The notes below the pieces were generated by a model. It saw only the letters and a list, made by a program, of their open reading frames with translations. It did no database searches and was not told where the DNA came from. Shown in pieces: positions 3,294 through 19,108 of a stretch of 64,000 nt of DNA. Both the position numbers and the translations under genes were made by a program. The number at the start of each line of letters is the position of its first letter. Within the stretch, counting starts at the first letter, position 1. This DNA is from a virus. The stretch is from IMG/VR virus record IMGVR_UViG_3300046001_008198, positions 61,220 through 125,219 of that record; one strand, given 5' to 3'.

Positions 3294-3294
3294 G

Positions 3295-3636
3295 TTATAG
3301 CAATTTAAGGATGGTTTCTAAAAAAGAAAGCTCTTTGGTGATACCAGAGTAAACTTGAGCTTCAGTGTTGACATCCGATGATACTGTACAAGAATTTAAT
3401 ATAACTGAATCAATAGATTCATGAAGTCGTGCATCCCACAAATCGGAAGAGGTATTTTTATCTATAGCTTGAATTAATTGAGTAGCTGCAGTTTTAAGAA
3501 CTTCCATATTGTTGAGTGCTTTGAGTACAATGTCTGCTTCTGCTTTTGTAGAACATAGGCAAATCCGTCCATAAGATTTCTCGAATACAACTACACTACC
3601 GTCTTTGTATGAGATTTTTCTATACTTGTTTGCCAT
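3295..3636 (-). CDS. hypothetical protein
   Basis: 113-aa ORF, tight packing. Confidence 0.7.
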   Translation of the reverse strand: MANKYRKISYKDGSVVVFEKSYGRICLCSTKAEADIVLKALNNMEVLKTAATQLIQAIDKNTSSDLWDARLHESIDSVILNSCTVSSDVNTEAQVYSGITKELSFLETILKLL

Positions 3637-3637
3637 A

Positions 3638-4624: not shown

Positions 4625-5058
4625 TACTTAACAATTGTGCGATGGGCTCTTACTAAATAGACTTCACCATTAGGTCTGTCGATAATAGCTCTTCCTTCTT
4701 TTAGGCTACTAAGTGTTGCAGTAGGTTCTCCTAAGAATATTTGAATAGCTGATAAGATTTTATCTGTAGCAGATTTACCATTAGTTACTTGAATTGTGTC
4801 AATGTATGTATCTTCTGGAGAGAATAGAACATCAACTTCAATAACTTTGGATTCTTCTCTTACAGGCATATCTGAGGCAATTGAAAGTACCACAGCATCA
4901 GGAGCTGGAGTGTCGAGAATTTGAGTTGGTTGATCGTAAGATTTAACTGTGAGTGTTTTACCTTTGAGTTGCTTTAATGCTTCTCTGTCGATAAAGTTCT
5001 CTGGGTCCGGACATAATACAATTTTCAATGCTCCGTTGCTGATGATAGTAATTTTCAT
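4624..5058 (-). CDS. hypothetical protein
   Basis: ORF; ATG at 5058 preferred. Confidence 0.7.
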   Translation of the reverse strand: MKITIISNGALKIVLCPDPENFIDREALKQLKGKTLTVKSYDQPTQILDTPAPDAVVLSIASDMPVREESKVIEVDVLFSPEDTYIDTIQVTNGKSATDKILSAIQIFLGEPTATLSSLKEGRAIIDRPNGEVYLVRAHRTIVK

Positions 5059-5068
5059 TGTGTAAGAT

Positions 5069-5536
5069 TTAGAGTATACCGTTGTCGGCAAATGAATAAT
5101 AATTATGTTTTGTTATAATTAAGTGGTCAATAACTTGCATATCAATCATGCTACCAAAGTTTTTTAATTTTCTAGTAAGTGATATATCATTATCGCTTGG
5201 TTTATTTTGACCACTTGGGTGATTGTGAACTAAAATTATAGCGTGACAATTGCTGTTTTTTAATGCATTGCTGAATATAATTTTGCCATCAACTACAACT
5301 CCACTGTATCCACCTTCTCCAATTTTTGAGTAACCAATAATTTGATTAGCTTTGTTGAGATATAAAGTGTAGAAGTATTCGTTTAGATTAATTTCACATA
5401 GTTCTTTTTTGTAAATCTTTCTCATAAAAGCTGCAGTTGTTTCAGGACTTGTCAGGTTTTCTATAGGAAATGTAGTACTTTCTTTTGCTAATGTAAGTCT
5501 TTGTCGAATTACATATTTTACTGGAAGTTTCATCAC
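5069..5536 (-). CDS. radC: RadC-like JAB/MPN domain protein
   Basis: EYFYTLYLN, IILVHNHPSG..PSDND, VIDHLII: complete JAMM motif. Confidence 0.9.
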   Translation of the reverse strand: MMKLPVKYVIRQRLTLAKESTTFPIENLTSPETTAAFMRKIYKKELCEINLNEYFYTLYLNKANQIIGYSKIGEGGYSGVVVDGKIIFSNALKNSNCHAIILVHNHPSGQNKPSDNDISLTRKLKNFGSMIDMQVIDHLIITKHNYYSFADNGIL

Positions 5537-5814
5537 ATTAAGAAATTAATAGCTATTTGCATATCGATGAAGATAAGGTAATTACCCATAGCTAATTCAT
5601 CTTTGTGTCCTACTATTTTAAATAATGGTTCAAGAAATCCTTGATTGTTTTTGAAACCTGTTATTCTTGCAGATCTGATAATACCATTTTGTTTTTTAGG
5701 AAGCATGTAGTCTCTGTGTAGAACAAGAACTTTACTCCCTATTGTCAGGTCTTTCATTGGGAAACTGTATCCTTTTGGAAGATCTGTTTGATTTATTTTT
5801 TGATGTTGTGGCAT
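5533..5814 (-). CDS. hypothetical protein
   Basis: 93-aa ORF with 4-nt overlap to the JAB gene. Confidence 0.65.
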   Translation of the reverse strand: MPQHQKINQTDLPKGYSFPMKDLTIGSKVLVLHRDYMLPKKQNGIIRSARITGFKNNQGFLEPLFKIVGHKDELAMGNYLIFIDMQIAINFLM

Positions 5815-6229
5815 AGTTAATAAATTGTTTGAAAAAGATTCTCATAATTTCATCTTTGCTGTAATTGCTGTCAATGAATTGTTCAAATTCTTTTTGATTA
5901 ATATTAATTTCAATTGTATATGAAGTTTCAGTAGTTTCTCTAGGAGATTTTTCTAAATATTGTGGAAACTTCATTGGTATTTTTGAGCGTAATTCTTCTG
6001 TAAATTCTATAAATTCGGGATGATTCTGAATGAAAAAGACTTCAATGATATTATGGCGAATTGCATCATGGTTTCGATTTAATTCTTTACCAATAGCACT
6101 CAGAGACATTTTTAGTATCCAAAACATATATGCGGCTATATAATGTCGTTGTAATACAATGTCTCTGTTTCGTGCTCTTGTAATTAAACCTTTCTCTTTC
6201 ATGAATCCCCGTAAGTCATCAATTGTCAT
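5732..6229 (-). CDS. DnaA C-terminal-like helix-turn-helix protein
   Basis: RARNRDIVLQRHYIAAY..SLSAIGKELNRNHDAIRH resembles DnaA domain IV (R..IA.AR..AMY..SL..IG..F.RDHTTV.H). Confidence 0.65.
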   Translation of the reverse strand: MTIDDLRGFMKEKGLITRARNRDIVLQRHYIAAYMFWILKMSLSAIGKELNRNHDAIRHNIIEVFFIQNHPEFIEFTEELRSKIPMKFPQYLEKSPRETTETSYTIEININQKEFEQFIDSNYSKDEIMRIFFKQFINYATTSKNKSNRSSKRIQFPNERPDNRE

Positions 6230-6230
6230 C

Positions 6231-6929
6231 CTAATTACATTTTAAGGTTTTAGTTGTTTCAACTGTCCACGGAATATCTGAATGTTCAAAGCAATCTTTG
6301 AGATAGTCAAATTCTTTGAATTTGAATTTGGCATCCCACTCTTTAGCTCTTTCATAACTAGATGTAGCTAAGGCTTTGAATCCGTAGAAATCTCGCATCT
6401 TTTCTACATCTATAGGCTCAATATCAATTTTTGTATCATTGAACTGTAATTGATAAAAAGAATGCAATGGATCCGGTGCGAACAAAGTTTGCTTTGGATT
6501 ACCTAATTCCATAAAGAAAGTTGCAGTATTTAAATATCTACTTGGATTGAGTTGATTGAATGCGGCATATACAGCTAACTGTAACATTGAATTGTTAACA
6601 TACCAATCTGTTACAGGTTTATCCGATGTAATATTTTTATGTTCAATGAATAGAAAAGAACCTGTCATTACTAATCCTTTGTTGTCATCTTTGAAATCAG
6701 GAATAACTTCATCGAATGCGTAGTGAATAAGTACTTCTTGATTGTTGACCGGAAGTTTATATGTTCCTCGCATTTCTAAAAATTGTGATGTAGCTTTAGC
6801 TAAGGCAAGTTCATTTCCTGCAACTTGTGCTGGTGTTACTACTGCTTTATCAGGATTGTTTCTTAGATAGCAGATTTGCATTGCAGACTTTTTGATAAGG
6901 TCGGCAAGGCCAAAATGTTGTGTTTCCAT
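6231..6929 (-). CDS. PD-(D/E)XK (RecB/Cas4-like) nuclease-fold protein
   Basis: YAFDE..FIEHK..LQLAVYA (RecB-type QxxxY); start at METQ after a terminator and the repeated motif. Confidence 0.55.
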   Translation of the reverse strand: METQHFGLADLIKKSAMQICYLRNNPDKAVVTPAQVAGNELALAKATSQFLEMRGTYKLPVNNQEVLIHYAFDEVIPDFKDDNKGLVMTGSFLFIEHKNITSDKPVTDWYVNNSMLQLAVYAAFNQLNPSRYLNTATFFMELGNPKQTLFAPDPLHSFYQLQFNDTKIDIEPIDVEKMRDFYGFKALATSSYERAKEWDAKFKFKEFDYLKDCFEHSDIPWTVETTKTLKCN

Positions 6930-6954
6930 GTGATGATAGTAAAATGAAAAAAGC

Positions 6955-7209
6955 CTACTGAGTTTCAGTAGGCCGAGGTAGTACCCAGTATACATCATTA
7001 GTTTGCTCGTCACGAACTAAAGGAATTTTGATTAATTCTATGTCTTTTGGGTTAATCTTAATGTTTTGATTGGTGCGGTAATAACCTTGTGCTTTATATC
7101 GAAGTGGGAAATCTTTTATGAATTGATCGGCTACTTCTGAGGAGAATTCTTGAGGTGATGCTGTAATATTATCAGTCTTATTGAAGACTATAAAGAGTTG
7201 TTGTTCCAT
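6955..7209 (-). CDS. hypothetical protein
   Basis: Short ORF followed by a terminator hairpin. Confidence 0.65.
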   Translation of the reverse strand: MEQQLFIVFNKTDNITASPQEFSSEVADQFIKDFPLRYKAQGYYRTNQNIKINPKDIELIKIPLVRDEQTNDVYWVLPRPTETQ

Positions 7210-7385
7210 ACAATACATCCTTCTTTTTTGTGCTTTTCATACATAAGCTCTGTTGTAGATCTTACAATGAATTTACGGTGAGGTTTCATTTTAAGTTTGT
7301 TGACATCAAAGCTTTCATAGCCTGGTAAACAACTAACTAAATGTTCAATATCGATTACTTGTTTGCGATTGGAATTTCTGATCAT
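7188..7385 (-). CDS. hypothetical protein
   Basis: 65-aa ORF overlapping its neighbours. Confidence 0.55.
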   Translation of the reverse strand: MIRNSNRKQVIDIEHLVSCLPGYESFDVNKLKMKPHRKFIVRSTTELMYEKHKKEGCIVWNNNSL

Positions 7386-7675
7386 ACTTCTTCTAAAATT
7401 TCAGCTTCTAAATAAGCAATTATTTCTTCTTCATTGTTAGGATCTATGATTGCAAATCTATGACATGAGTAAAAACTATATGGAAAATGTGCATCGGTTA
7501 ATGTGAGTTCAGCAAGTGTGAAACCCCATGTATTTTTTCCATACTGAGTTCTATGCAACTTAGTTGCTGTATAAACTCTTTTATCTTTAACCCATAGGTA
7601 GTCAGGAATTTCAACAGGTTTTTTTGCATCATCAATACATACGACCTTGCATGGTAATTTGATTTCTTTAGCCAT
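7382..7675 (-). CDS. hypothetical protein
   Basis: 97 aa, VVCIDD..Y.....F...RF pattern. Confidence 0.7.
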   Translation of the reverse strand: MAKEIKLPCKVVCIDDAKKPVEIPDYLWVKDKRVYTATKLHRTQYGKNTWGFTLAELTLTDAHFPYSFYSCHRFAIIDPNNEEEIIAYLEAEILEEV

Positions 7676-7952
7676 TGAATTCTTTTTTTATTTCAGCAAT
7701 AAGTCCGCGTCTTTCAAGGACTGCATGCATTGGATGTATTTGTTCCCAAGATCCCATTTTAACATGGGCTTTTCCTGAATTGTGTGCAATTAGTACTATT
7801 TGTTCAACTTGCAATGGTTGGAATTGGGTTGCTTCGGTTACAGCACCGGCTACATATTCGAATGAATGTACATCGTCATTATGTAGAAATAAATGACATT
7901 CTGCAAGATGAGGATCGATCTCGGTGAGTTCTTTATAAGAGGTCTTGTTCAT
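7668..7952 (-). CDS. clpS: ClpS-like ATP-dependent Clp protease adaptor
   Basis: LFLHNDDVHSFEYV, LIAHNSGKAHVKMG, RRGLIAEI: N-degron pocket residues N-D-D and H are conserved; Bacteroidota-type. Confidence 0.85.
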   Translation of the reverse strand: MNKTSYKELTEIDPHLAECHLFLHNDDVHSFEYVAGAVTEATQFQPLQVEQIVLIAHNSGKAHVKMGSWEQIHPMHAVLERRGLIAEIKKEFNG

Positions 7953-8358
7953 GAGCGAGTTTTGGGTTTTCAAAATGAATTTTATCATGGCAGTTACGAC
8001 ACGAGGCTTTAAAGAATTTTACCTCAGTTGTATTAATACCACGACCTTTCGAGTGATGCAAATCAGTTGCGGATCCAGTGCAACCTACCCAATTAATTTC
8101 ACAGTAAGGATGTTTATTGAGATATTCTAATCTAACTTTTAGATACTCAGCTTTAATCTTTGCTTGTTTTGGTGAAAGTTTTTTAATTGGGGTTGGTGGT
8201 TTTACTGTAGGCTTTTTTACATTTGATGCTTTGTCACTCATTTGAAGCGAGCAACTATAACTGCAGCAAGGCAACCTGTCTCCATCTATTGTTACATATT
8301 TGAAGACAGGTCTATTGTTACCACAACAAATGCACTGTTTATGTTTTCTAGCAATCAC
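7933..8358 (-). CDS. HNH endonuclease-like protein (Ref/NinG-like Zn-binding)
   Basis: CICC..CSYSC N-terminus; CE..GC..ATDLHH..CRNCHDKIH. Confidence 0.7.
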   Translation of the reverse strand: MIARKHKQCICCGNNRPVFKYVTIDGDRLPCCSYSCSLQMSDKASNVKKPTVKPPTPIKKLSPKQAKIKAEYLKVRLEYLNKHPYCEINWVGCTGSATDLHHSKGRGINTTEVKFFKASCRNCHDKIHFENPKLAHEQDLL

Positions 8359-8924
8359 ATTGCAGCAAAGTTAGAAGGTAATAGTTTACTTTCCAAAAGT
8401 TTTTCGATAATCATACCTCTGGATATTCCTAATTCCTTGAATGAAAGTGTGCATTTAAAATTTGAATCTGTTGTAATGTCTGAGCTTAATAACTGCTTGA
8501 ATAATACAGCAGGTAAGATTTCAGGAGTTTGCTTTTTAATTTGCACAGAAACTTTAGAAGTGTTTTCGTATGAGCGCACGATTTTGAGGTCATTACTTCT
8601 TTGACTTGAAGCTGATGATAGTAAATCATTCGCCACATTACTGAAAGCTTTCAATCGGAGATTCATTATCTCTTGCTTGAAGATGTTAATTACATCTTGA
8701 GCTTTTCTGTGAGTTTTTGCTATACGAGATTTCTTTGCAGAATTCATGGTATATAATTCTTCTGGTGTGTAAACAGAGAGTCCGAACAATAAGCGATCGT
8801 AAAGATGCTGCTGTCCGTTTGATAGAGATACTGGTCCATAAGACTGTGCTAGTTTTTGGTACTCAGTTCTGATAATACGAGTTTTAGTCAGTGACGCTAA
8901 GTCCTGAAGAGAATTTGTTTTCAT
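8355..8924 (-). CDS. hypothetical protein
   Basis: 189-aa ORF. Confidence 0.8.
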   Translation of the reverse strand: MKTNSLQDLASLTKTRIIRTEYQKLAQSYGPVSLSNGQQHLYDRLLFGLSVYTPEELYTMNSAKKSRIAKTHRKAQDVINIFKQEIMNLRLKAFSNVANDLLSSASSQRSNDLKIVRSYENTSKVSVQIKKQTPEILPAVLFKQLLSSDITTDSNFKCTLSFKELGISRGMIIEKLLESKLLPSNFAAM

Positions 8925-8945
8925 ATAAATTTGGATTAAAGAATT

Positions 8946-9200
8946 TTATTCATCATTGAATAGAGCATCGAGATTAATCTCTACTGTTGGCTCGTCTTCA
9001 TCTGTGAGAAATTCAAGGGTTTGGTGTTGTGATGGATCTTCGATGTCTTCTTCGATGTGTTCATCAAGACTTTCGAAAGGGTTGGATGAGGCTCCTCCGA
9101 TGTTCATGCCATTTAGGACTTTCAAATCATCATCGTCCATAGCTAAAAAAGCCTCTAAGGACATGTTGATTGATTTACCATTTGGACATTGATACCTCAT
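8946..9200 (-). CDS. small acidic hypothetical protein
   Basis: MRYQCPNGKSI..., D/E-rich. Confidence 0.75.
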   Translation of the reverse strand: MRYQCPNGKSINMSLEAFLAMDDDDLKVLNGMNIGGASSNPFESLDEHIEEDIEDPSQHQTLEFLTDEDEPTVEINLDALFNDE

Positions 9201-9237
9201 TGTTGCAATAATTATATATAATAACAAAAATAAGTTA

Positions 9238-9681
9238 TTAAAGTAGTTCTATAGGCTTACAGTAGTATTGTTGAATCTTTATAATTGAAGATATTACTAA
9301 ACCATCTACTATTTTAGTTGGAATTTTAACAAAAACATCCTGATTTAGAACTGAGATTTCATGTATTTCCACTACAACATAACCATTGATATCAATCAAC
9401 TTGTTGTTTTTGTGGTAGTTCATTATTTCTGTATTCCAAAGTGATTTAATTTTAATCCTAACATTTACTCCAGGAGCAAAGATGCATGGATTACCATTAA
9501 CTTTGATTGGTTTTTCAGGATTGTTTAGAAAGTTCATGAACATATCTCTCTGATCACTTCCCATTTCTGAAAGATTGAGTGCTAATTGTTTAATAATTAG
9601 TTCTTTTTTTTCTGGAAAGTTCATGAACATTTTGATAATATCAATATCTCTTTGTAAAGAGTCTTCGTTGATTCTGCTCAT
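9238..9681 (-). CDS. hypothetical protein
   Basis: 147-aa ORF. Confidence 0.7.
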   Translation of the reverse strand: MSRINEDSLQRDIDIIKMFMNFPEKKELIIKQLALNLSEMGSDQRDMFMNFLNNPEKPIKVNGNPCIFAPGVNVRIKIKSLWNTEIMNYHKNNKLIDINGYVVVEIHEISVLNQDVFVKIPTKIVDGLVISSIIKIQQYYCKPIELL

Positions 9682-9683
9682 AA

Positions 9684-9821
9684 TTAATTGATGTAACCGT
9701 ATTGAGCCATTAGTGTTGGATCAACCCCTGTGAGTTGGCAATCTAAGATGAATTCTTCATGCATTTGTGCCAATACATCATCTTGGGTCATTGGCTTTTG
9801 TTCTGTTGTTGGCTTTTCCAT
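9684..9821 (-). CDS. small hypothetical protein (45 aa, below track cut-off)
   Basis: MEKPTTEQKPMTQDDVLAQMHEEFILDCQLTGVDPTLMAQYGYIN*, fills the gap after a terminator. Confidence 0.65.
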   Translation of the reverse strand: MEKPTTEQKPMTQDDVLAQMHEEFILDCQLTGVDPTLMAQYGYIN

Positions 9822-9841
9822 TTGTGTAAATTAAGAGAATA

Positions 9842-9872
9842 AAAAAGGGAATACACGATGCATTCCCTTTTG
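9842..9872. terminator. intrinsic terminator (bidirectional)
   Basis: aaaaaagggaat-acacgatgc-attccctttt. Confidence 0.7.
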
Positions 9873-9923
9873 TCAATAAATTAAACTTCGTCAAGTCTAA
9901 GTTCTCCCTCCATGCAGGGGGTG

Positions 9924-10157
9924 TCACCTAGTTGGATGTCTCTCCTTTCTGCTGTAGTTAATCAATCCTTCTGTTAAGATTGTTATCAAGTTCCCTTCAT
10001 AAATATCTAGAGTATAGATTCGGGGTGTTTTAACAACAATTTCAAAGAATGGTATTGAGTTACAGAAAGCTATATTAATCGTGTTGTTGTTTTCCGATTG
10101 ATAACTTGCTGAATAAACTACAACAAGAAGGAGCAACATAGTTAGTGATGCTCTCAT
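9924..10157 (-). CDS. predicted membrane/secreted small protein
   Basis: Hydrophobic N-terminus MLLLLVVVYS. Confidence 0.5.
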   Translation of the reverse strand: MRASLTMLLLLVVVYSASYQSENNNTINIAFCNSIPFFEIVVKTPRIYTLDIYEGNLITILTEGLINYSRKERHPTR

Positions 10158-10186
10158 CTTATATTTTTTAGATTGGTGTAAATATA

Positions 10187-10726
10187 TTAATTATTTGCAA
10201 TAAATTTATAATAGGTTCGATTTTCACTTTTGGTGTAGACAGCGTAGTCTTCTCCAACAATGATATATTCATTCTGATTATAATAAATTGTACCGTTATT
10301 TCCTAAATCAGGAATAATGTCAATGTAAGGCATGGTATAGGATCCATTTCCATCTATTCTTTCTATAATGAGGTATTTAGTTCCATCAGTTTCTTGGTAA
10401 AAGCTGACATGGCTGTATTCTCGAAGGATATTATAGAGTGGTAGATTAGGTTTGCTGATAATTAACCATCCTGAATTGCTTTTGCTGTAAATGTGTGTTA
10501 AAACTTCATTGTTTACAACATAGACTGTTGTTTTGTATTCAATCACAAGTGTTGTTAATGATGTTTTAGTAATTTCTACGGGTACTTCTGCAGTACTGGA
10601 ATTGAAATACTTGACAACATACAGGTCTTGAATTGTAACTTGTTCGGTTGGACAAGCATCTATCGGAGTTGCTTGAACTGTTGTTGCGAATAATAGAATC
10701 GCACAAATTGCAAAAAATCTTTTCAT
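10187..10726 (-). CDS. secreted protein with signal peptide
   Basis: MKRFFAICAILLFATTVQA: classic Sec signal with AxA-like cleavage. Confidence 0.75.
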   Translation of the reverse strand: MKRFFAICAILLFATTVQATPIDACPTEQVTIQDLYVVKYFNSSTAEVPVEITKTSLTTLVIEYKTTVYVVNNEVLTHIYSKSNSGWLIISKPNLPLYNILREYSHVSFYQETDGTKYLIIERIDGNGSYTMPYIDIIPDLGNNGTIYYNQNEYIIVGEDYAVYTKSENRTYYKFIANN

Positions 10727-10972
10727 GGGTTTGAAGATTTAAAGATTAATACTAAATAAATAATTGTGATATATATAGGCTTTGAGGCCAAGCTGATTGA
10801 ACAGCGTGTCTTGGGTTTGATGATAGTAAAAGTTTTTAATGTGGTACTTTACCGCCTTTTAAGGTAAACCAAATGGTGAACATTGGAATGAGGTTGATAC
10901 AAAATCTTTTATGGTATTGAGAATAATGTACACCTATCCAGAAAGCTCGCCAATTGAATAACATTCCTAATT

Positions 10973-11293
10973 TCATTTGCTTTTCTTTTTAGATTTTAGG
11001 ATGAGAAATTCTGTACACTGAATGACTGTCATAGATGGATCTGAATAATCTAATCTACCTTCAATGATTACTTCCATTTGAGGAACTAGCGTATCATTCA
11101 TTATTTTAGCCATTTTTAATTTGGCGCATACATTGTGTGTTTGGATATTAGTAATGGTTGAAATCTTATTTTTAGTTTTGAATGTTTCAACTGTTTCTAA
11201 TTCCATAGATAATAAAGGACCTTTTTTAAGGTCTGTGTACATCATGGATTTTACTGTACCTATCAGAGATACTTTGTTTCTTAATGGCTGCAT
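10973..11293 (-). CDS. SSB-like OB-fold protein, no acidic tail
   Basis: LRNKVSLIGTV..ETVETFK..HNV..EVIIEGRLDYS matches the SSB core. Confidence 0.7.
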   Translation of the reverse strand: MQPLRNKVSLIGTVKSMMYTDLKKGPLLSMELETVETFKTKNKISTITNIQTHNVCAKLKMAKIMNDTLVPQMEVIIEGRLDYSDPSMTVIQCTEFLILKSKKKSK

Positions 11294-11294
11294 A

Positions 11295-11798
11295 TCAAAT
11301 TTTTTTAAGTAAGTATTCTCCTTGTTCTGTTAATCTTGGTTCAGGAACGGCATAAACTTTATCTCCACAAATATCCATCACAAATTCAACTTCAATTTCT
11401 GTTGGTTGCATAACATGTCTTTCCAAGTAACCTTTATAAGATTTTTGAGCTTCAGGATAAGTTTTATCTTTTGAAATCCATCCAGCATAAAAAGCATTTA
11501 ATACTTGTTCCAAAGTAAACACCTTGTCTTTATTCAACTCCATTGCTTTGTTGAAGCCTATCTTAAAGCCAATTTTTTCACGAGTTTTAAAATCATGAAC
11601 ACGAGTTTTTTCATCAAGTGTTTCAAGTTCTCTAGCCAACTTCTCAACATCAACTACTCCCATTGCTTTAGCAAACTCTTCTTCACAATTTTGTTTGGAT
11701 AGTTTTTTATCTCTATTATCTCTTGAATCAGTAGATGCTATTGCCCAACTTTTATCAACATATAAGTAGAAAATATCATCTTTCTTAATTAGTTTCAT
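11295..11798 (-). CDS. hypothetical protein
   Basis: 167-aa ORF. Confidence 0.75.
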   Translation of the reverse strand: MKLIKKDDIFYLYVDKSWAIASTDSRDNRDKKLSKQNCEEEFAKAMGVVDVEKLARELETLDEKTRVHDFKTREKIGFKIGFNKAMELNKDKVFTLEQVLNAFYAGWISKDKTYPEAQKSYKGYLERHVMQPTEIEVEFVMDICGDKVYAVPEPRLTEQGEYLLKKI

Positions 11799-11818
11799 AT
11801 GATTGTGTATTAGTTGTT

Positions 11819-12028
11819 TTATTTTTTTAGTGCATCATATAGTGCTGCTGTGAACAAACACGATAATAAAAATGCTAATGCAAAGAATCCTATGCATGCT
11901 CCTCGACCTTCTGGACTCCATTGTGAAATGTTGAAAGTTACAAAGTAAAAACTTACACATAAATAGATCATAGCTATTAGGATTACAAATATTGCAATAT
12001 TTGTTTTAATTAGTTGGTGTATACTCAT
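11819..12028 (-). CDS. two-TM membrane protein
   Basis: Two hydrophobic helices separated by NISQWSPEGR. Confidence 0.7.
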   Translation of the reverse strand: MSIHQLIKTNIAIFVILIAMIYLCVSFYFVTFNISQWSPEGRGACIGFFALAFLLSCLFTAALYDALKK

Positions 12029-12156
12029 TTTGCTTGGGTTTAGTGGATGATAGTAAATAATAAACCCGGACCTGTATGAGATCCGGGAATTTTCTAGTGT
12101 GCTAGAGCAGTACCTACGAAATTAAATATTTATGCTAGATATTTGGAAAAATATCG

Positions 12157-12230
12157 TGATTATGATGGGAGTCGAACCCACACCCCTGATCCGTGTACCC
12201 AGACCCGCACTACCCCAGTGCTACACAATC
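12157..12230 (-). tRNA. tRNA-like gene with aberrant anticodon arm (anticodon not assignable)
   Basis: Acceptor GATTGTG/CATAATC+A73; D stem GCAC/GTGC; T arm GTGGG-TTCGACT-CCCAT; anticodon stem GGTCT/GGATC with 8-nt loop GGGTACAC; no encoded CCA. Confidence 0.7.
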
Positions 12231-12307
12231 GCCATATCAGGAATAGGTAAACCTGATAATGTAATACCAATGAAGCAGGGGGTTGCCTGACTTACACACT
12301 GGTGATA

Positions 12308-12565
12308 TTATAATGGAAATTCATCTTTGTCTTTCCACAGCTGAACGATATCTGTTGGTGATTTGGTAATCACTGTGTCAAATAATAGTTTAGCTAATGA
12401 TTCGTTGTTACCTGACAAAGTAAGGAAATCTTTTTTGGTGTGAGACTTTCCTGATTTATCAATATAACATACTAAAGTTTCGCAACTGTTGTAAGCATCT
12501 ACTGATTTGAAAATAGATTTAGCTTTAACAGTGCAGTGTTGTGGTGTTTGTGTAAGAGTATTCAT
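12308..12565 (-). CDS. hypothetical protein
   Basis: 85-aa ORF. Confidence 0.7.
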   Translation of the reverse strand: MNTLTQTPQHCTVKAKSIFKSVDAYNSCETLVCYIDKSGKSHTKKDFLTLSGNNESLAKLLFDTVITKSPTDIVQLWKDKDEFPL

Positions 12566-12583
12566 TGTTGGTTGGTTTTGTGA

Positions 12584-12901
12584 CTATTTGAATCTACCGC
12601 CGTGATCTCGCTTTGCTAACTTTTTGAGAGCATTGTCTTTGTTCAAGGCTGATATATACACACAGTCTGGTTTCATTACTACTTTTTTGTTTGTAGATCC
12701 AGAAGAATCTTTGTTAACTACATAATCGGTTTTGGTAAACTCCGCTGGTTCAATTGTACCTGTTTCTAAATTTATTTCAAATAAAGAATGACCTCGGTGT
12801 GGATGAATACTACCAATATGTTTTTCCTGAAACTTCTGTTCTGTTTCTTTGGAGATATGAATCTCTTCACGGACTCCTAACTCTATTTCTTTACTGTTCA
12901 T
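12584..12901 (-). CDS. hypothetical protein
   Basis: 105-aa ORF preceded by TACCTTTG (TAnnTTTG) at 12906-12913. Confidence 0.75.
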   Translation of the reverse strand: MNSKEIELGVREEIHISKETEQKFQEKHIGSIHPHRGHSLFEINLETGTIEPAEFTKTDYVVNKDSSGSTNKKVVMKPDCVYISALNKDNALKKLAKRDHGGRFK

Positions 12902-12928
12902 GATACAAAGGTAAATAAAAATTAGTTA

Positions 12929-13213
12929 TTACAAAATTATGATGTCAGTGGCAATGACTTTACCTTTAGCAAGATAACCTTCTACAGCTAAATCAGATCC
13001 GATTCGTAGGCGATTAATAAATTTTAGGTATATGTCTCCTTTGAGTACAACTCTGTGTTGATACTTTTTTGTGATAGGTTTACCATTTCCATCCAACTGT
13101 AGAGATTTAGTTTCCAGGATAAAGCAAGTGCCTACTTTTTTAATACCTTCTTCGGTGGTTTGTTTAGGCTCAAGCGTTTTGAGAAGCTTGCCTATTAAGT
13201 TTACATGATTCAT
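12929..13213 (-). CDS. second SSB-like OB-fold protein, truncated
   Basis: MNHVNLIGKL..FILET..QHRVV..GSDLAVEGYL. Confidence 0.65.
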   Translation of the reverse strand: MNHVNLIGKLLKTLEPKQTTEEGIKKVGTCFILETKSLQLDGNGKPITKKYQHRVVLKGDIYLKFINRLRIGSDLAVEGYLAKGKVIATDIIIL

Positions 13214-13223
13214 GTGAAATGTT

Positions 13224-13427
13224 TTACTTGGTTGTGGTTAACTCTTGTGGTTGAACTTGGGTTCTTTTAACACCATGTTCTTGTTCTATTGCAAAAAGAA
13301 TCTTGTTGGCTTCATTCATTCTGTCAACGGCTTTCATTCCGATTGCCATGTGATGATTGAATGTGTTGGCTGCATCAACCCATCTTTCATTTGCAAGTTC
13401 AAATTTTAATCTGGTTGTGTCGTCCAT
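13224..13427 (-). CDS. hypothetical protein
   Basis: 67 aa; ATG overlaps the TTTACTATCAT motif. Confidence 0.7.
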   Translation of the reverse strand: MDDTTRLKFELANERWVDAANTFNHHMAIGMKAVDRMNEANKILFAIEQEHGVKRTQVQPQELTTTK

Positions 13428-13493
13428 GATAGTAAAAGTTAAAGGTTAATAAATTACCCCTCTGCATCTCAGTTGTAGGCTGTTATACCCTAA

Positions 13494-13858
13494 GTTAGCA
13501 CCAATACTATTGAACCAACCTATAAACAAGACGTTCAGCTTCTTTGCCTTTAACGTGCTTATAAATAGTTAATTCAGTTGGTGTTCCATTGTTATCAGCC
13601 ATTCCGCTAATTGAAACAATTTCACTAACTTCAATCACATTATTAGGGTCTGTACCTTCATAAACTATAAATGGGAAAGGCAAAGAACCTGCCTTAAATT
13701 CCTTAATTTCATCATCAGTAAAATAAGTACTGGTGCTAACATCGGTTTGGCAAAATTGCCGTTTTGTTTCTTCGTTTGACATTTTATCTAAATTTTAAAG
13801 TTTGTACTACTAATGAAGTTTTGTGTTCGGCAACTTCGCCAAGCCGAGAAACGTTATC
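13494..13858 (-). mobile_element. integron-cassette-like element (attC-like hairpin, ORF, inverse core site)
   Basis: Core GTTAGCACCAGTAC (13727-13740) vs inverse core GTATTGGTGCTAAC (13494-13507), 13/14 complementary; upstream 20-bp imperfect inverted repeat 13742-13761/13828-13847 bounded by TAAC and GTTA. Confidence 0.6.
13507..13782 (-). CDS. cassette-borne hypothetical protein
   Basis: 91 aa, MSNEETKRQFCQTDVSTS; first 14 codons lie in the attC-like hairpin. Confidence 0.75.
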   Translation of the reverse strand: MSNEETKRQFCQTDVSTSTYFTDDEIKEFKAGSLPFPFIVYEGTDPNNVIEVSEIVSISGMADNNGTPTELTIYKHVKGKEAERLVYRLVQ

Positions 13859-13869
13859 ATTAACTATTT

Positions 13870-14080
13870 AACATAGTTCACTTACAACTGCTCACCCTTG
13901 GGAGCTGATTAACTCATCTAGCTATATGCTACATTAGTTTCGGTTAATCAGGTGGTTTCACATCTTATGTGGCTGGTTTCCACTACATCCCGTGCACTAG
14001 GAATAAGAAGTCTTTATATCCACGTGAGAATGGTGCATTAATAATTTGACGGCTCCCGTATTTCAGAGAGCCGTTCAATA
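13870..14080 (-). ncRNA. candidate structured non-coding RNA
   Basis: Intergenic; hairpins ACGGCTC..GAAA..GAGCCGT, CTGATTAAC/GTTAATCAG, GCTC..GAGC; no ORF >=60 aa. Confidence 0.35.
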
Positions 14081-14157
14081 ATTGGGTTTGTAGTACTTGC
14101 TACAAATATGTCCATCAACGCTAGGTTGGATAAAGCCGAAGCTATTTCATGATTTTT

Positions 14158-14361
14158 TCATAGATTTGTTCTAGTAATAATTTTTTCTGTTTGTCCCCAT
14201 GAAAATTCAGAGGGATTGAGATAATCTAATTTGAATGCTTTTTTGAATACATCTGCAATCATTACTTCATCGAATTCGTCTTCGAATGTTACTTCAGATT
14301 TATTAACATCAAGGATGAATGTTATCAATGATGCTAAATCAATTAATACAAGTGTTATCAT
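14158..14361 (-). CDS. hypothetical protein
   Basis: 67 aa, 10 nt downstream of the motif. Confidence 0.7.
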   Translation of the reverse strand: MITLVLIDLASLITFILDVNKSEVTFEDEFDEVMIADVFKKAFKLDYLNPSEFSWGQTEKIITRTNL

Positions 14362-14400
14362 AATTGGGGTGGATGATAGTAAATACTATTAAATATATAA

Positions 14401-14697
14401 CTATAGTACTTGATAAATGAATAATGGATATCTCATTTCACCGTGTACTGAATCTATTTGAAAGAATATAGCCATTCCTAAGAAATTACATTCTGTAGAA
14501 TCAAATGCTTGACCGTCTGGAACTATCTTAAATTTGAATATTCTATGGTAGATCATATCAGGATTGTGAGAGAAATAGATTCGGAGGTCAAGGTTAACAC
14601 GTTCTATACTTAGAATTTTGGCATCCGATGGTAAGTTCACTTCATGAGTTTTTTCACATGGAAACTTAATTGTGATATATGTTATGATCGTATTCAT
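14401..14697 (-). CDS. hypothetical protein (common small phage family: LP..AKILS..F.IV..G....FLG)
   Basis: 98-aa ORF. Confidence 0.7.
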   Translation of the reverse strand: MNTIITYITIKFPCEKTHEVNLPSDAKILSIERVNLDLRIYFSHNPDMIYHRIFKFKIVPDGQAFDSTECNFLGMAIFFQIDSVHGEMRYPLFIYQVL

Positions 14698-14708
14698 ACA
14701 GTTACGTT

Positions 14709-15068
14709 TTATAAGAGTCCTATCTTTTCAAGGAAATCTTTGTTAGTAAATCGATGTTCAAAGAATTCAATTACATAGACATCTTCATCAGTAATAAGAT
14801 GGTCAATGGCTGTGATATGGTCGCCGTCATTGTATTGGCGAAGAAGATTAAGCATTGCATCAACAAGGTAATCGATGTGTTCATACGTAATGAATTGTCG
14901 AGCACTCTCGATAGCTACTGCCTGAGCAAAATACTTGTTAATATCCATTCTGTGGTAGTCAAAGTCTTTCTCAGAATTATCAGCGTCAAGGATTATTAGT
15001 CGTTTGATAATGTTTGGAAGCTCTGTAGCACTGAGGATGTGTGTGAGGTAGAGATTATTTGGTGTCAT
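14709..15068 (-). CDS. hypothetical protein
   Basis: Start at MTPNN, downstream of the motif. Confidence 0.65.
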   Translation of the reverse strand: MTPNNLYLTHILSATELPNIIKRLIILDADNSEKDFDYHRMDINKYFAQAVAIESARQFITYEHIDYLVDAMLNLLRQYNDGDHITAIDHLITDEDVYVIEFFEHRFTNKDFLEKIGLL

Positions 15069-15408
15069 TATTTGGTGGATTAAATGATAGTAAATACCAG
15101 TATATTTTTTCATCATGCATTCCATGTAAGTCGAGAATGCTGAATGCTGTTTGGTGGTAATTGATTATTGGTTCAGATGATATTCCGAATGGAAATCTTT
15201 CATTTTTGTAATCGTAATAAGTTCCAACCCAATTTTCATATTTGAAAATATCATGAGTGCCCTGACTATAATCAGGACCTTGAGTGATAACAAATACATT
15301 TAGATCCGGACGATATGTTGATACCCAGATATGTTTTAATGTTTCTGATTTATCTGTAGTAATCAATAACTTCACACCAGGTTTTGTTTCAAAAAGGATA
15401 TGTGCCAT
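15055..15408 (-). CDS. paralog family protein A
   Basis: HILFETKPGVKLL...YWYLLS. Confidence 0.75.
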   Translation of the reverse strand: MAHILFETKPGVKLLITTDKSETLKHIWVSTYRPDLNVFVITQGPDYSQGTHDIFKYENWVGTYYDYKNERFPFGISSEPIINYHQTAFSILDLHGMHDEKIYWYLLSFNPPNNDTK

Positions 15409-15411
15409 AAT

Positions 15412-15747
15412 TTATGAGATTAAGTACCAATAGAATATATCTGGATGTACAAAATCATATCCTTTGAGAATTGATTCTAACGATTCATGTTTATAATATG
15501 TTGATCCTGCTACAGAATTGTAAATAATAAACTGAGTATTGATTCTGTTTGGTGTACCTGTTGTACTAAGAAATGCATCAATAACATTAGGTTTTGTTAT
15601 AGTCCACAGTGTTTCTTCATTTGTATACAACACAGTTAATTTGTCATAATAGAAGAAAGTTGAGAATGCAAGCACTAGATTAGGACATTTTTCTTGAACA
15701 ACAAGCAAGCGTACTCCGGATTTAGGTTCTACGATAATTCGTTTCAT
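15412..15747 (-). CDS. paralog family protein B
   Basis: RIIVEPKSGVRLL...FYWYLIS*. Confidence 0.75.
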   Translation of the reverse strand: MKRIIVEPKSGVRLLVVQEKCPNLVLAFSTFFYYDKLTVLYTNEETLWTITKPNVIDAFLSTTGTPNRINTQFIIYNSVAGSTYYKHESLESILKGYDFVHPDIFYWYLIS

Positions 15748-15759
15748 AGGCGCTGGGTG

Positions 15760-16074
15760 TTATGATAGTAAATGCCAATAGGTCTCACCTTTGGATGTGA
15801 ACATATAATGATTTAGCATTTCAAGTAGGCATTCACTTACAGTTGCACAATAATCTGATGGTTCACGGATGTTTATGAAGTTACTGTCCCACGGCAATAA
15901 GTTAACACCTTTTACGGTAATGAGGTAATGGAATTCTGGTGGTGCAAAGTAGAGTGTGAAATCTTCAGGGCCTGTAAACATTTCAGTAGTGAATACATGA
16001 GGGAGCATTTTTGATTTAGTCTTTGTTAGCAACAATCGCACTCCTGGTTGTGGTTCAATTATGAGGTGGTTCAT
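15760..16074 (-). CDS. paralog family protein C
   Basis: HLIIEPQPGVRLL...YWHLLS*. Confidence 0.75.
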   Translation of the reverse strand: MNHLIIEPQPGVRLLLTKTKSKMLPHVFTTEMFTGPEDFTLYFAPPEFHYLITVKGVNLLPWDSNFINIREPSDYCATVSECLLEMLNHYMFTSKGETYWHLLS

Positions 16075-16083
16075 AAGGCTTGG

Positions 16084-16440
16084 TTATTTATCTTCTTTCA
16101 TTATATGAATTTCATCGATGGCGAATGTAATGGATGGATCCATCTTACTTTTGATTGTTAATTCAGCCATTTGTTGAGCATCGAAAGCATCAGTAGCTTT
16201 GACAAAGAAGTCTGCCGTGTATGTAACTTTGAATGATTTAAGTTGACGTAGTTCTTTGATGTATGCATAAACTGTTTTGAATTTTTGCTTACGCTCAATA
16301 GGGTCTAGTATTTTGTCAACTGTTGTAGTGATTGATGCGTCACCATTTGTATATAATATAATACAGGCTCTTTGTAAAAAGGGAAATTTCTTTTTTATCT
16401 TGGTGACTAAGTTCTTGTGTTCAATTGGTGAGAGTTCCAT
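16084..16440 (-). CDS. hypothetical protein
   Basis: 118 aa; motif directly upstream of ATG. Confidence 0.75.
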   Translation of the reverse strand: MELSPIEHKNLVTKIKKKFPFLQRACIILYTNGDASITTTVDKILDPIERKQKFKTVYAYIKELRQLKSFKVTYTADFFVKATDAFDAQQMAELTIKSKMDPSITFAIDEIHIMKEDK

Positions 16441-16501
16441 GATGATAGTATTAATAGGTGAAAATTCAAAAGCGGCAGGTACTAATCTTTCTGAATTACT
16501 T

Positions 16502-16636
16502 CTATACTATAAGAGATAAAAGAAAAGATCTGTCATGCATGTAGTCTTCAAAGATAGAGTCTTGAGGTATGAGGTCATGTTCTATGCAATGTTCGAATAG
16601 CTCTGTAGTGGTCCAATCGTAGTAGGGAGTGTCCAT
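16502..16636 (-). CDS. small acidic hypothetical protein
   Basis: MDTPYYDWTTTELFEHCIEHDL... Confidence 0.55.
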   Translation of the reverse strand: MDTPYYDWTTTELFEHCIEHDLIPQDSIFEDYMHDRSFLLSLIV

Positions 16637-16934
16637 ATAGTAATATTTAAATTGAATAAATGGTCGGTTTGAGTAGGTATGAAGAGGTGAGGAATATAGG
16701 GATAGGTTGTCCCTCAGTATCACACAAAGAGAAGCCAAAACCTCGCATTATTGTAATGCTATGCTTAATAAAGAGGATTAAAGTATCAAATATCCCCGGG
16801 TGGAGACTAACTTTGAAAAGATTAATCCCTTATAAACATTGAGAAGTATGTAAAAGTATACTATTGGATTCCTAAAACAGTACAAAAGGAGATATTGCTA
16901 CCTCCTAATGCATTGTTCCTCTCTTTACACAAGG

Positions 16935-17123
16935 TTATTGTTCATCTAATTCGATATAACCTAGTATGAATAGGTCATTTGTATTAGCTGAAATACTGAT
17001 TGATTCTGTTTCTACTTCTTCAATCATAAACTTAATAGCGAATTTCTTTGCTATTGCTTTGAATTGGTAGTACTCCTTTAAACTAAGGTGTATGATTGTG
17101 GTAATGATTTCTGCAGTTTTCAT
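16935..17123 (-). CDS. hypothetical protein
   Basis: 62-aa ORF with A-rich leader. Confidence 0.65.
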   Translation of the reverse strand: MKTAEIITTIIHLSLKEYYQFKAIAKKFAIKFMIEEVETESISISANTNDLFILGYIELDEQ

Positions 17124-17464
17124 AAGCTTATTTATTGTGGTTTATAGCCTTATTTAATTAATTATGAGATAGTTACGCATTGTAACTTAAAGTAATAGTT
17201 AAACCCTTTCACGGTACAGGCATGGTCTTGCTGGATGAGTGATGTATTAGTAGTTGGGCTTGTAATACGTAAGGGTTGCTTGTAATAGGATAGTAGCTTG
17301 GGTCCTGGAGTATGAGATCATCTCTGTTGTTTCGGCTTTCCTGATTACAGGCGGGGTGATGATAGTAAGGTAGCACATTCTTGATTGGGCCTTCTTCGAA
17401 GAAGCTAGTAGCTAGGGTCCCGAAGGATGTGAAGGTCAGGAAGTGCATACCATGGGACTGTAAT

Positions 17465-17615
17465 TACTACGAGTGCTGTTCCGTGTTAGCACGGGTGAGC
17501 ATTGGGTGTAGAGACTGTTGCCAAGATCGCATGTATGTCAACCCTCGGAGAGCATAGGTTGCCTAGGCGGCAGGACGAAGTCCTTCTAAGAGCCGACACC
17601 AAGTTGGGAGTGAGT
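17465..17615 (-). ncRNA. candidate structured non-coding RNA
   Basis: GC-rich intergenic segment; TTGGTGT/ACACCCAA, CAACC/GGTTG, TGCT-CCGTG(ctaa)CACGG-AGCA, AGGAC/GTCCT. Confidence 0.4.
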
Positions 17616-17635
17616 AGCGATGATAGTAAAACAAA

Positions 17636-17651
17636 GCCCCCGTTAAGGGGC
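17636..17651 (-). terminator. intrinsic terminator followed by the motif
   Basis: gcccc-ttaac-gggggc tttgtttt actatcatc. Confidence 0.8.
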
Positions 17652-17677
17652 GATGTTCAGTACCAAGGATATCTGTG

Positions 17678-18445
17678 TTACTCAATAACCAAACCTCCGA
17701 AGGCTTTAGTCTTTGTAGTAGCATGTACTTCCATTTTTGCAATAGCCTCTGATTCTCGTTGTTTAATCTGCTCTTCAGGAGAAAGTTGAGCAAATGATTC
17801 ACGAATTTCTTGGTTTGCAAGAGTCAATGATAGTAAAGAAGGCGAAGCCGAAGTCAAGATGCTCGGATTACCTTTCAATAGATTATCATCGTATTTGATT
17901 GGAACAGTACTTCCGACAAAGGATTTACCCTTAGCCTCAAACGCTTTGATTAATTCATCAAGGTTTGTGAACACCTGTTCAACACGAAACACTTTATCTC
18001 CAAAGCGAATTGCGATTCTACGGCGACCGTAGTTCCAATTCTCAAGATGTCCTTTCGGATTCTCAGGAGTAATGTGTTTATCAAATGTGTAAGATTTCTT
18101 TTTCTCAGGATTTTGTCTGTGATAAAGTAATCTTTCAGTATCAACCTTCGCACTAGCAACAACACAATGCACCATAGGTACAGAGATATTTGATTCAGTA
18201 ATGAAGTGTTGAATATCCACACCTTCAACAGTAATATCGTCACGGACAATATCAGAAGTGTTAGGTGTTTCAACATCAGCGCCCCAACCTAAAGAAGTAG
18301 CCAAAGCATTAAGCTTTGCTTGAACTAAAGGGTTGTTAGATGCTGACGCACAAAGAGTTGTCAATGCAGTTTTAGATTTAACACCTAAAGCTAATTTAAT
18401 GTCCGATGACAACGGACAAGCCTGTAAAAATTCTGAAGCATTCAT
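17678..18445 (-). CDS. hypothetical protein
   Basis: 255 aa from MNASEF; followed by a terminator. Confidence 0.8.
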   Translation of the reverse strand: MNASEFLQACPLSSDIKLALGVKSKTALTTLCASASNNPLVQAKLNALATSLGWGADVETPNTSDIVRDDITVEGVDIQHFITESNISVPMVHCVVASAKVDTERLLYHRQNPEKKKSYTFDKHITPENPKGHLENWNYGRRRIAIRFGDKVFRVEQVFTNLDELIKAFEAKGKSFVGSTVPIKYDDNLLKGNPSILTSASPSLLSLTLANQEIRESFAQLSPEEQIKQRESEAIAKMEVHATTKTKAFGGLVIE

Positions 18446-18744
18446 ATGAATGAGTATTTGGTAAAAAGAAGATGTCTTTAAGTAGGCACATCGATTCCTT
18501 GATACAATTCGTGTATGTATCAAACAGAGATATATAAATTAGCGAGCGAAGCCAAAATATCTCGAAGAGATTCAATCTAAGTCAAAGGTTGAGAGTAGTG
18601 AAAAACACTTGATTACCGAGCACCAATTAAGGGACAAGACAATCAAGTGTAAACCTAAGCTGAAACTATGAAAACTGAATACAATCCAATCTATGTCAGA
18701 GGTGAGGATGAGGGTTGATGATAGTAAACAAAACTCCCCGTAGG

Positions 18745-19034
18745 GAGTTGTTGGGTTTCTGCCGTGGCCCACACGCCTATCGAGGTTTGTTTCTTGGGAG
18801 CTGACTTGACCTCGTAGGTACAGTAACATTCAGCTCTTGCATTCCGACAACATTGTCAGAGAAGATTTGGTTGGAGTTCCCCTCTCAACCATGTAGTCGC
18901 AGTGTTCTCAGTGGTTATGATAGATGAGCTCTGCGCGCACCCTCTATCCTGTCCTCGTTGTGCACCATACCATATCGGTCCATCGAGTCAAGGATACTCA
19001 ATCGGTGGTGAATATGTCGAACCAACAACAACTC
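18745..19034 (-). ncRNA. candidate ~290-nt structured RNA with H-type pseudoknot
   Basis: Closing helix GAGTTGTTG/CAACAACTC; pseudoknot stems GAGCTGA/TCAGCTC and CCTACGAGGT/ACCTCG(A)TAGG; hairpins at 18843-18860 and 18869-18890; UACG terminator at 18732-18749. Confidence 0.6.
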
Positions 19035-19108
19035 ACAATATAATCCAATCTAAGTCAAAGGTTGAGCGAAGCGAGAGTGGGTGTGATGAGCGATGATAGT
19101 AAAAGAAA

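Follow-up and report, generated by a model that had tools for sequence, protein, structure and literature searches.

The attC sites of integrons are 57–141 nt long, and the integrase IntI cuts their folded bottom strand between the A and the C of the 5'-side AAC. Integron integrases also act on secondary sites, for which the consensus is GWTMW. Here we report on a 64,000-nt stretch of viral DNA (the window; bases 61220–125219 of the 125,219-bp IMG/VR virus record IMGVR_UViG_3300046001_008198, rated 100% complete), in which a 121-nt hairpin with attC-like ends overlaps the start of a 91-aa open reading frame (ORF) designated P0001. We consider it likely that this stretch carries one mobile cassette of an integron-like system that belongs to Bacteroidota and their phages, and that this cassette stands alone in the 125-kb phage.

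Other systems in which small genes are bounded by repeated sites bear comparison with this locus. The PeSL (promoter early stem-loop) cassettes of T4-type phages are likewise repeated stem-loops that bring expression signals to both sides of small accessory genes; they, too, occur in plastic genome regions and accompany the shuffling of genes. In contrast, their exchange is thought to be driven by homology, and they are not known to have AAC/GTT cores, unit ends that complement each other or a counterpart in bacterial arrays linked to a recombinase. The pdif modules of Acinetobacter plasmids, which depend on XerC/XerD, are likewise small gene modules bounded by Xer-type recombinase sites; these are 28-bp duplex sites in inverted orientation, whereas the sites described below are 120-nt folded hairpins in direct orientation.

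Sites of the attC type have been reported from phages. A survey with IntegronFinder and HattCI detected 17 clusters of attC sites lacking integrases (CALINs, i.e. at least two attC sites close together and no integrase) in 10,705 phage genomes, and reported integron components as rare, with 21 of the 10,705 having them (Qi et al. 2023, PMC9892861). Polaribacter phage P12002L, one of the 17 CALIN phages, carries methyltransferase cassettes (PMC9892861). Like the phage CALINs, the hairpin family to which the window's element belongs has attC-type sites that adjoin DNA methyltransferase genes and occur in virulent phages lacking an integrase. P12002L_attC1 is built in the same way, as TAACG..stem..TGTTAGGC. 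Cargo in flipped orientation, start codons within the loop and an Xer-like partner, however, are not described for these CALINs (PMC9892861). Flavobacterium phages are absent from the list of Qi et al. (PMC9892861), though Muminvirus, e.g. mumin9-1, carries several sites. As for the host phylum, IntegronFinder 2.0 found essentially one complete integron in Bacteroidetes, where integrons are regarded as rare. A full-text literature search found no description of the hairpin family, of its flipped polarity or of its Xer-like partner.

Results

An attC-like hairpin overlaps the start of P0001

The locus was pointed out by a model that read the letters of the window alone (the original prediction). 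It described a 91-aa ORF bracketed by repeats that are 13/14 complementary, an ATG and leader lying within the loop of a hairpin and, after the stop codon, a second TAAC start that has no partner arm. All of this is present on the minus strand (Table 1): the ATG falls inside the loop, and no partner arm was found after the downstream CTAAC. Two details had to be adjusted. The repeat near the start does exist and occupies codons 15–19, not 14–19, and the hairpin of about 123 nt, whose TAAC, arms with 17/20 pairs, 66-nt loop and GTTAG had been read as they are, starts at 13856 rather than 13858 and is 121 nt long.

Table 1. Features of the hairpin, the inferred cassette and its cargo (positions are those of the window; ^ marks a boundary between two bases).
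Feature	Position	Strand	Remarks
Inferred cassette, 359 nt	13495..13853	-	begins with the C of TAA^C on the upstream side and ends with the last A of CTAA^C on the downstream side; hairpin body, ORF and inverse-core end
Element, 121 nt	13856-13736	-	TAACG, 4 unpaired nt, 20-nt arm, 66-nt loop, 20-nt arm, TGTTAG
5' core TAACG, folding (gene-sense) strand	13852..13856 (TAAC 13856-13853, G 13852)	-	pairs with TGTTA 13741-13737
Unpaired spacer TTTC	13848..13851	-	no counterpart on the 3' side, hence an asymmetric internal loop
5' arm TCGGCTTGGCGAAGTTGCCG	13828..13847	-	seen in arm pairing, fold and alignment A3
Loop, 66 nt	13762..13827	-	A/U-rich translation start region and ATG (13782-13780) of the 91-aa ORF
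3' arm CGGCAATTTTGCCAAACCGA	13742..13761	-	translated as RQFCQTD
3' core TGTTAG	13736..13741 (T 13741, GTTAG 13740-13736)	-	same termini as the aadA7 attC bottom strand
Inner repeat GTTAGCACCAGTAC	13727..13740	-	5' end of the cassette in the sense direction, codons 15-19
Cargo ORF P0001, 91 aa	13507..13782	-	conserved 73-aa core from residues 19-20; residues 1-18 are the hairpin-encoded leader
Inverse repeat GTATTGGTGCTAAC	13494..13507	-	overlaps the stop codon
Junction with phage DNA after CTAAC	13485..13494	-	no hairpin follows

Besides the 17/20 Watson-Crick pairs, the arms form two G.U pairs and one C.A, and the number of such matches expected by chance is 0.00. Folding of the region gave z = -3.66 as RNA and z = -2.53 as DNA, and TAACG pairs with TGTTA in the fold. 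Read on the minus strand, the one mismatch between GTTAGCACCAGTAC and GTATTGGTGCTAAC is a G.T wobble. This pair was extended to 20 nt at 85% by a repeat search, and when the 64 kb were searched with up to 3 mismatches, the two copies were recovered at 0 and 1 mismatch and the four other matches had 3 each. The element matched nothing with ARAGORN or in Rfam (at the gathering threshold and at E ≤ 1), a collection that does not include the attC models of IntegronFinder and HattCI. No sigma-70-like promoter was found in the loop and no Bacteroidota TAnnTTTG motif was seen by eye; the sole terminator-like call, made on the plus strand, covers 5 bp of the 3' arm.

An attC hairpin is recognised by its length of 57–141 nt, an unpaired spacer, non-Watson-Crick features and one preferred strand, and the element has 121 nt, a one-sided 4-nt spacer, a C.A and G.T pairs. 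The 7-nt consensus RYYYAAC/GTTRRRY is matched in part, the top strand of the window reading TGCTAAC and GTTATCA, with TAAC and GTTA present and paired. One strand of the canonical aadA7 attC reads ..CTAACG...TGTTAGAC.. (oligonucleotide table of Qi et al. 2023, PMC9892861). Its termini are those of the window's hairpin. We take the aadA7 strand that reads CTAACG...TGTTAG to be the attC bottom strand; from these termini and the cutting rule of IntI, the gene-sense strand would therefore correspond to the attC bottom strand, and the inferred break would lie where IntI would cut. The cut is placed inside TAAC by analogy with IntI cleavage at AA^C, while the limits of the cassette rest on family-wide breaks at TAACG and on a copy in another contig (L334, see below) that ends at CTAAC.

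The hairpin belongs to a large family with conserved pairing

In a blastn comparison with phage records, window positions 13725–13871 were 73% identical to Flavobacterium phages of the genus Muminvirus, over an intergenic region and the first ~19 codons of a DNA methyltransferase, and the Muminvirus alignment contains compensatory changes (TTGCCG/CGGCAA versus TGGCTG/CAGCCA). Two exact 19-nt arm patterns each matched at least 119 IMG/VR stretches, with a constant arm spacing of 88–91 nt, and the 3' arm pattern was present in at least 120 contigs of Bacteroidota genomes (Flavobacteriaceae, Chitinophagaceae, Saprospiraceae, Sphingobacteriales and Cytophagales). A structure scanner that requires only TAAC, a stem of at least 14 pairs and GTTA returned 574 matches (569 non-overlapping) from 1.75 Mb of viral loci, versus 18 from shuffled DNA. 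Up to 11 elements occur on one strand of a locus, and the spacer offsets seen most often among family members are 4/0 and 5/1. The ORFs behind the elements are mutually unrelated; they encode N6/N4 methyltransferases, C5 DNA methyltransferases and many small unknown proteins. The 120-nt hairpin body of the window itself is 94–97% identical to bodies in at least 10 other viral contigs, with at least 7 different cargos.

Conservation of the stem was assessed in two sets of copies. In the set chosen by the 3' arm pattern only, which leaves the test unbiased, the adjacent 7-mer (42 sequence types) was paired at ≥6/7 at the expected place in 217 of 298 copies, versus 25 of 298 in a control window. 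The other set was an alignment, A3, of 61 diverse members. Of its cells, 93% are paired versus 66% after shuffling, a percentage that is inflated because the members were picked by the stem-requiring scanner; changes on both sides were found in 360 cells versus 107 when shuffled, and the covariation score was 0.63 versus 0.14, with slid partners at ≤0.125. One internal G.U pair is nearly invariant (60/61), while the invariance of TAACG and the G.U of TAACG/TGTTA (61/61 in A3) are imposed by the selection, as the scanner required TAAC, GTTA and G. The element is thus conserved at the level of the nucleic acid while its sequence varies, and in this it behaves as attC sites do, in which structure is kept and sequence varies.

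Unit ends and breakpoints outline a cassette

The original prediction had read a core/inverse-core signature of a cassette from a single ORF. For neighbouring elements on the same strand, we checked whether the 10 nt that follow the first GTTA are complementary to the 10 nt that precede the second TAAC, and found this signature to be general. The unit ends are complementary at 6.8/10 positions on average and at 9/10 in 142 of 327 cases, whereas the two flanks of a single hairpin reach 3.25/10 and random pairs 3.4/10. With wobble pairs allowed, 52% of 263 non-redundant units were paired at ≥9/10, versus 2% after random re-pairing.

The extent of a unit can be approached from its breakpoints. 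Loci with a common upstream and a different downstream part remain ~95% identical through TAACG and then drop to background, and loci with a common downstream gene mostly have the hairpin body in common as well. On the gene-sense strand, the exchange point is therefore located within the 5' TAAC or directly beside it. The same breakpoints indicate that the hairpin travels with the gene behind it, so that phage cargo is antisense to the canonical integron orientation. As in attC recombination, sequence comparison thus places the crossover in the AAC/GTT core of a unit whose first bases complement its own inverse core.

A protein-alignment scan of metagenomes identified a 16.3-kb contig (JACCDP010738779.1, L334) in which the window's cassette recurs at 97% identity over window positions 13824–13494 only, between unrelated flanks; an exact search for the cassette junction in IMG/VR gave no match. 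The identity stops exactly after CTAAC, which in L334 continues as TAACGGTT.., where the first of six further hairpins begins. These six, two of which are only 48–49 nt long, form an array (2786–4947) whose units also have complementary ends and which has the makeup of a CALIN. The small ORFs between the L334 hairpins gave no significant Pfam match and one weak match to a zinc ribbon (E = 0.0035). A further locus (L335) combines this cargo with another hairpin, and there the break falls at GTTAG.

Several copies of the element (L334, L146 and others) are without a 5' arm, and in these the similarity begins at the same loop word, ACAAAACTT. This word recurs about 20 nt further on as ACAAACTTT in many loops of the family (window 13785–13823, for example). 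The two words may represent a second recurrent breakpoint or a protein-binding repeat.

Cargo polarity is inverted in phages

The orientation of the cargo was recorded relative to the strand that folds. At viral loci 175 genes are sense to the folding strand and 1 is antisense; at bacterial loci 8 are sense and 40 antisense. A loop ATG with a frame that runs on was found in 212 of 437 viral copies versus 4 of 81 bacterial ones. In bacterial arrays the genes run opposite to the folding strand, in the canonical order of ORF, then attC, as seen in contig 28 of Mucilaginibacter arboris, where seven copies lie in 8 kb. The conserved G.T pairs keep to the same DNA strand whatever the direction of the gene, and therefore favour a role as folded DNA over a primary role as RNA.

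Xer-like recombinases adjoin some of the sites

Tyrosine recombinases of 360–380 aa adjoin the sites in Flavobacterium denitrificans (L271:1828–2913), in M. arboris (L321:1204–2310) and in a Fluviicola metagenome-assembled genome. They pass the model NF040815 ("tyrosine recombinase/integron integrase") with 222 bits for a cut-off of 220; their nearest PDB match is XerA, and VchIntIA was aligned with them in two pieces. Judged by their sequences, the adjoining enzymes are Xer-like and not canonical IntI. Among 120 bacterial loci, 14 contain a homologue of these recombinases; among 191 viral loci, 5 do, and one of these homologues is a 298-aa form inside the array of a 169-kb phage contig. An IntI with its extra domain beside the array, as in a complete integron, was not found.

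Two bacterial loci contain further features. In M. arboris, a full site lies between the recombinase gene and a half site (L321:3293–3311) that follows the gene at a distance of ~1 kb and has a 3' arm and GTTG and no 5' arm. This half site is a candidate for the attI-like site of the system in bacteria. In F. denitrificans (L271:647–1710), genes for MerTP and an ArsR-type regulator lie between the site and the Xer-like recombinase gene, which suggests that the bacterial platform can sit in a metal-resistance island.

Altogether, most of what the original prediction expected to see beyond the window was observed. The element does occur elsewhere in front of unrelated ORFs, its arm complementarity is conserved through compensatory changes, its boundaries are precise both at TAACG and at the CTAAC of L334, and the arrays it suggested looking for exist in L334 and in M. 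arboris. A linked tyrosine recombinase was indeed present beside sites at some bacterial and viral loci, although it is Xer-like and not a typical IntI. Its proposal of a cassette system of Bacteroidota and their phages that delivers genes is supported, as far as sequence comparison goes, by the family, the boundaries and the covariation.

P0001 depends on a start codon borne by the hairpin

No match for P0001 was found in Pfam or PHROGs, its AlphaFold model (mean predicted local distance difference test, pLDDT, of 56) was too poor for a fold search, and the ESM Atlas gave no usable match. The protein has 31 homologues. Among them are 73-aa forms that start with MKYFT, aligned with residues 19–20 of P0001, and have no leader; the others carry varied leaders of 20–30 aa, nearly all ending in (D/A/N)VS(T/S/G)S, which corresponds to an in-frame GTTAGC. 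P0001 has no internal start at its core and the loop ATG is its sole usable ATG; it therefore depends on the loop for its translation start. Depending on the copy of the element, translation from the loop ATG passes through the 3' arm in one of two frames (..FCQTRVSGS.. versus ..NGNFAKPMLAP..), and short-loop variants of the family have no ATG at all. The leader peptide is thus a by-product of the DNA element. Conservation of the leader as a signal peptide was considered and rejected, as the same DNA is read in two frames and the 73-aa homologues are leaderless.

In other viral contigs, some P0001 homologues at 55–59% identity are flanked by TAAC/GTTA-type sites of other kinds. At L325/L327 (~2900–3300), a 57%-identical homologue lies between direct copies of a stemless 21-nt mini site, TAACGATAGGTATATGGTTAG.

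The cassette lies in a block of small phage genes

The first 1–19 kb of the window are a minus-strand block of small genes. A strand-specific motif, TACTATCAT, has 15 minus-strand copies in the arm 5042–19101 and 16 in the whole window, versus 1.1 expected. It often overlaps a start codon, for instance at 13426–13434, and the phage's own genes in this arm begin there; the motif probably serves the phage as an early promoter or start signal of its own. The cassette region lies between copies at 13426 and 14373, and no copy precedes P0001. Because the native genes of the arm begin at TACTATCAT and P0001 does not, the cassette gene carries a foreign start signal. A structure-based scan of the whole 125-kb genome returned one element only, so that the genome does not contain a CALIN.

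Between the upstream gene and the cassette lies an ORF-free stretch of 300 nt (13859–14157; fold z = -2.8), with a strong stem-loop at 14040–14083. Within it, ~50 nt upstream of the cassette, is a 47-nt mini hairpin on the minus strand (13905–13951; CTGATTAAC..29 nt..GTTAATCAG), with a perfect 9-bp stem and TAAC/GTTA cores. This may represent a site like the window's hairpin in minimal or decayed form, or be due to chance.

Discussion

We propose that the 121-nt element acts as a recombination site of the attC type. When single-stranded, the gene-sense strand would fold into a long imperfect hairpin closed by TAACG/TGTTA, and a tyrosine recombinase would cut the folded strand in the 5' TAAC. 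With a cut at this place the mobile unit would consist of the hairpin, the gene and the inverse-core end, and it may leave as a circle with pairing ends. Phage cargo is borne on the folding strand, inverted with respect to bacterial arrays; the site therefore precedes the gene, which takes its translation start region, its ATG and its first 18 codons from the loop. Since the phage has a single hairpin and no tyrosine recombinase, we read the unit as a solo cassette at a secondary, non-attC site; it would most likely have been inserted at a site of the GTTAT type by an enzyme provided in trans by the host or a co-infecting phage. On the plus strand the cassette starts G^TTAGCACC (13494^13495) and ends ..GAAACG^TTATCA (13853^13854), and the reconstructed empty target would read ..CCCTAAG^TTATCATT.. 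(..AAG^TTATCA..), a simple GTT-type form. We infer the recombination chemistry, the circular intermediate, the insertion at a secondary site and the source of the enzyme.

The family has much in common with integrons, above all the sedentary chromosomal ones whose attC sites are uniform and ~120 nt long, like the V. cholerae repeats: an imperfect hairpin within 57–141 nt, AAC/GTT cores and one preferred folding strand; CTAACG...TGTTAG termini identical to the aadA7 bottom strand; an inferred crossover in the 5'-side AAC; first bases of a unit that complement its own inverse core; arrays of small genes without promoters; and near-identical sites with unrelated cargo. It differs in that phage cargo lies on the folding strand and the site stands before the gene, to which it gives a start codon and a leader. 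Besides, the complementarity of the ends extends over 14–20 nt here versus 7 in integrons, the partner is Xer-like without the IntI insertion, no attI or Pc was identified, and the window has one unit and no integrase.

Several observations weigh against a recombinase-borne cassette, in addition to the inflated pairing percentage in A3. A profile search for PF00589 found no tyrosine recombinase in the window, where the original prediction had seen no integrase, nor in the whole 125,219-bp record, and most site-bearing phage contigs are without any. The adjoining recombinases score 200 bits on TIGR02249 (cut-off 265) and leave model positions ~177–239 unmatched, which means that the IntI-specific insertion is absent. 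The L334 copy lacks the 5' arm, and the 5' boundary of the shared cassette is in the loop, not at TAAC. The 94–97%-identical hairpin body precedes at least 7 cargos with the identity ending at GTTA, and such shared bodies point to either homogenisation or a second exchange point. P12002L_attC1, with its TAACG...TGTTAG termini, was the only site that IntI1 failed to recombine (PMC9892861). Finally, three protein-seeded neighbour-gene scans of IMG/VR and JGI metagenomes found no close phage relatives and so no empty site, and the movement of the cassette is deduced from sequence comparison.

Some of these points would be expected if the genes were shuffled by homologous or microhomology recombination between near-identical repeats, as for the T4-type PeSL, with no dedicated site-specific recombinase in phages. 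The near-identical bodies across contigs with different cargo offer ample homology for such exchange, which would also fit the lack of a tyrosine recombinase in this phage and most phage contigs, the break inside the loop of L334 and the joining of the L335 cargo to a different hairpin with a break at GTTAG. However, exchange of this sort does not produce unit-specific complementary ends, and no sharp TAACG break would be expected from it between otherwise dissimilar hairpins. The single copy in the phage has no internal homology partner, and the recombinases found next to bacterial arrays suggest that a dedicated enzyme exists. We hold it unlikely that homology accounts for the locus, while homology-driven shuffling is plausible as an additional route.

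Even more doubtful is a view of the hairpin as primarily an mRNA element, in which the stem around the translation start would control translation or RNase III-type processing of a polycistronic early transcript and would have spread as a regulatory module. It is known that attC folding in mRNA affects the translation of integron cassettes, and this view draws further support from the better fold score of the sense strand as RNA than as DNA, from the G.U pairs on the transcribed strand and from the start region and ATG in the loop of half of the phage copies. Nevertheless, bacterial genes lie on the opposite strand with the G.T pairs still on the same DNA strand, short-loop copies are without an ATG, and the complementary unit ends, the TAACG breaks and the linked recombinase are left unexplained; the RNA may still exert a secondary effect on translation. 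A self-spreading palindrome of the miniature inverted-repeat transposable element or repetitive extragenic palindrome type, inserting between genes that are not themselves mobile, would agree with an element that is very abundant and intergenic. We rejected this type of spread because target-site duplications are absent (8-nt flanks match at 2.12/8 versus 2.11/8 for random ones); the hairpin is moreover inherited with the downstream gene, and gene and hairpin recur as one unit in L334, which leaves this explanation with hardly any credibility.

Beyond the single integron-like cassette, we are inclined to a broader view of the family, with somewhat less assurance. Bacteroidota and their phages would have a common integron analogue that standard tools have missed, with an Xer-like recombinase without the IntI insertion and ~120-nt folded sites. 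Its phage branch would have inverted cargo polarity, the site doubling as ribosome entry region, start codon and leader. Large phages that lack every other part of the system, this 125-kb phage among them, could receive single cassettes at bare secondary sites of the GTT type. The data add hundreds of attC-type cassettes in Bacteroidota phages and chromosomes, with a different recombinase partner and a site that encodes the start of a protein; what the window itself adds is a solitary cassette in a phage without array or enzyme, together with its array-borne twin in L334. If true, the system would be a major exchange route for anti-restriction methyltransferases and small accessory genes in aquatic and gut-type phages, and its sites would provide a natural case of recombination sites that carry a translation start with them from gene to gene. 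Where integron-like systems arose, and how wide their host range is, would become testable in a new phylum.

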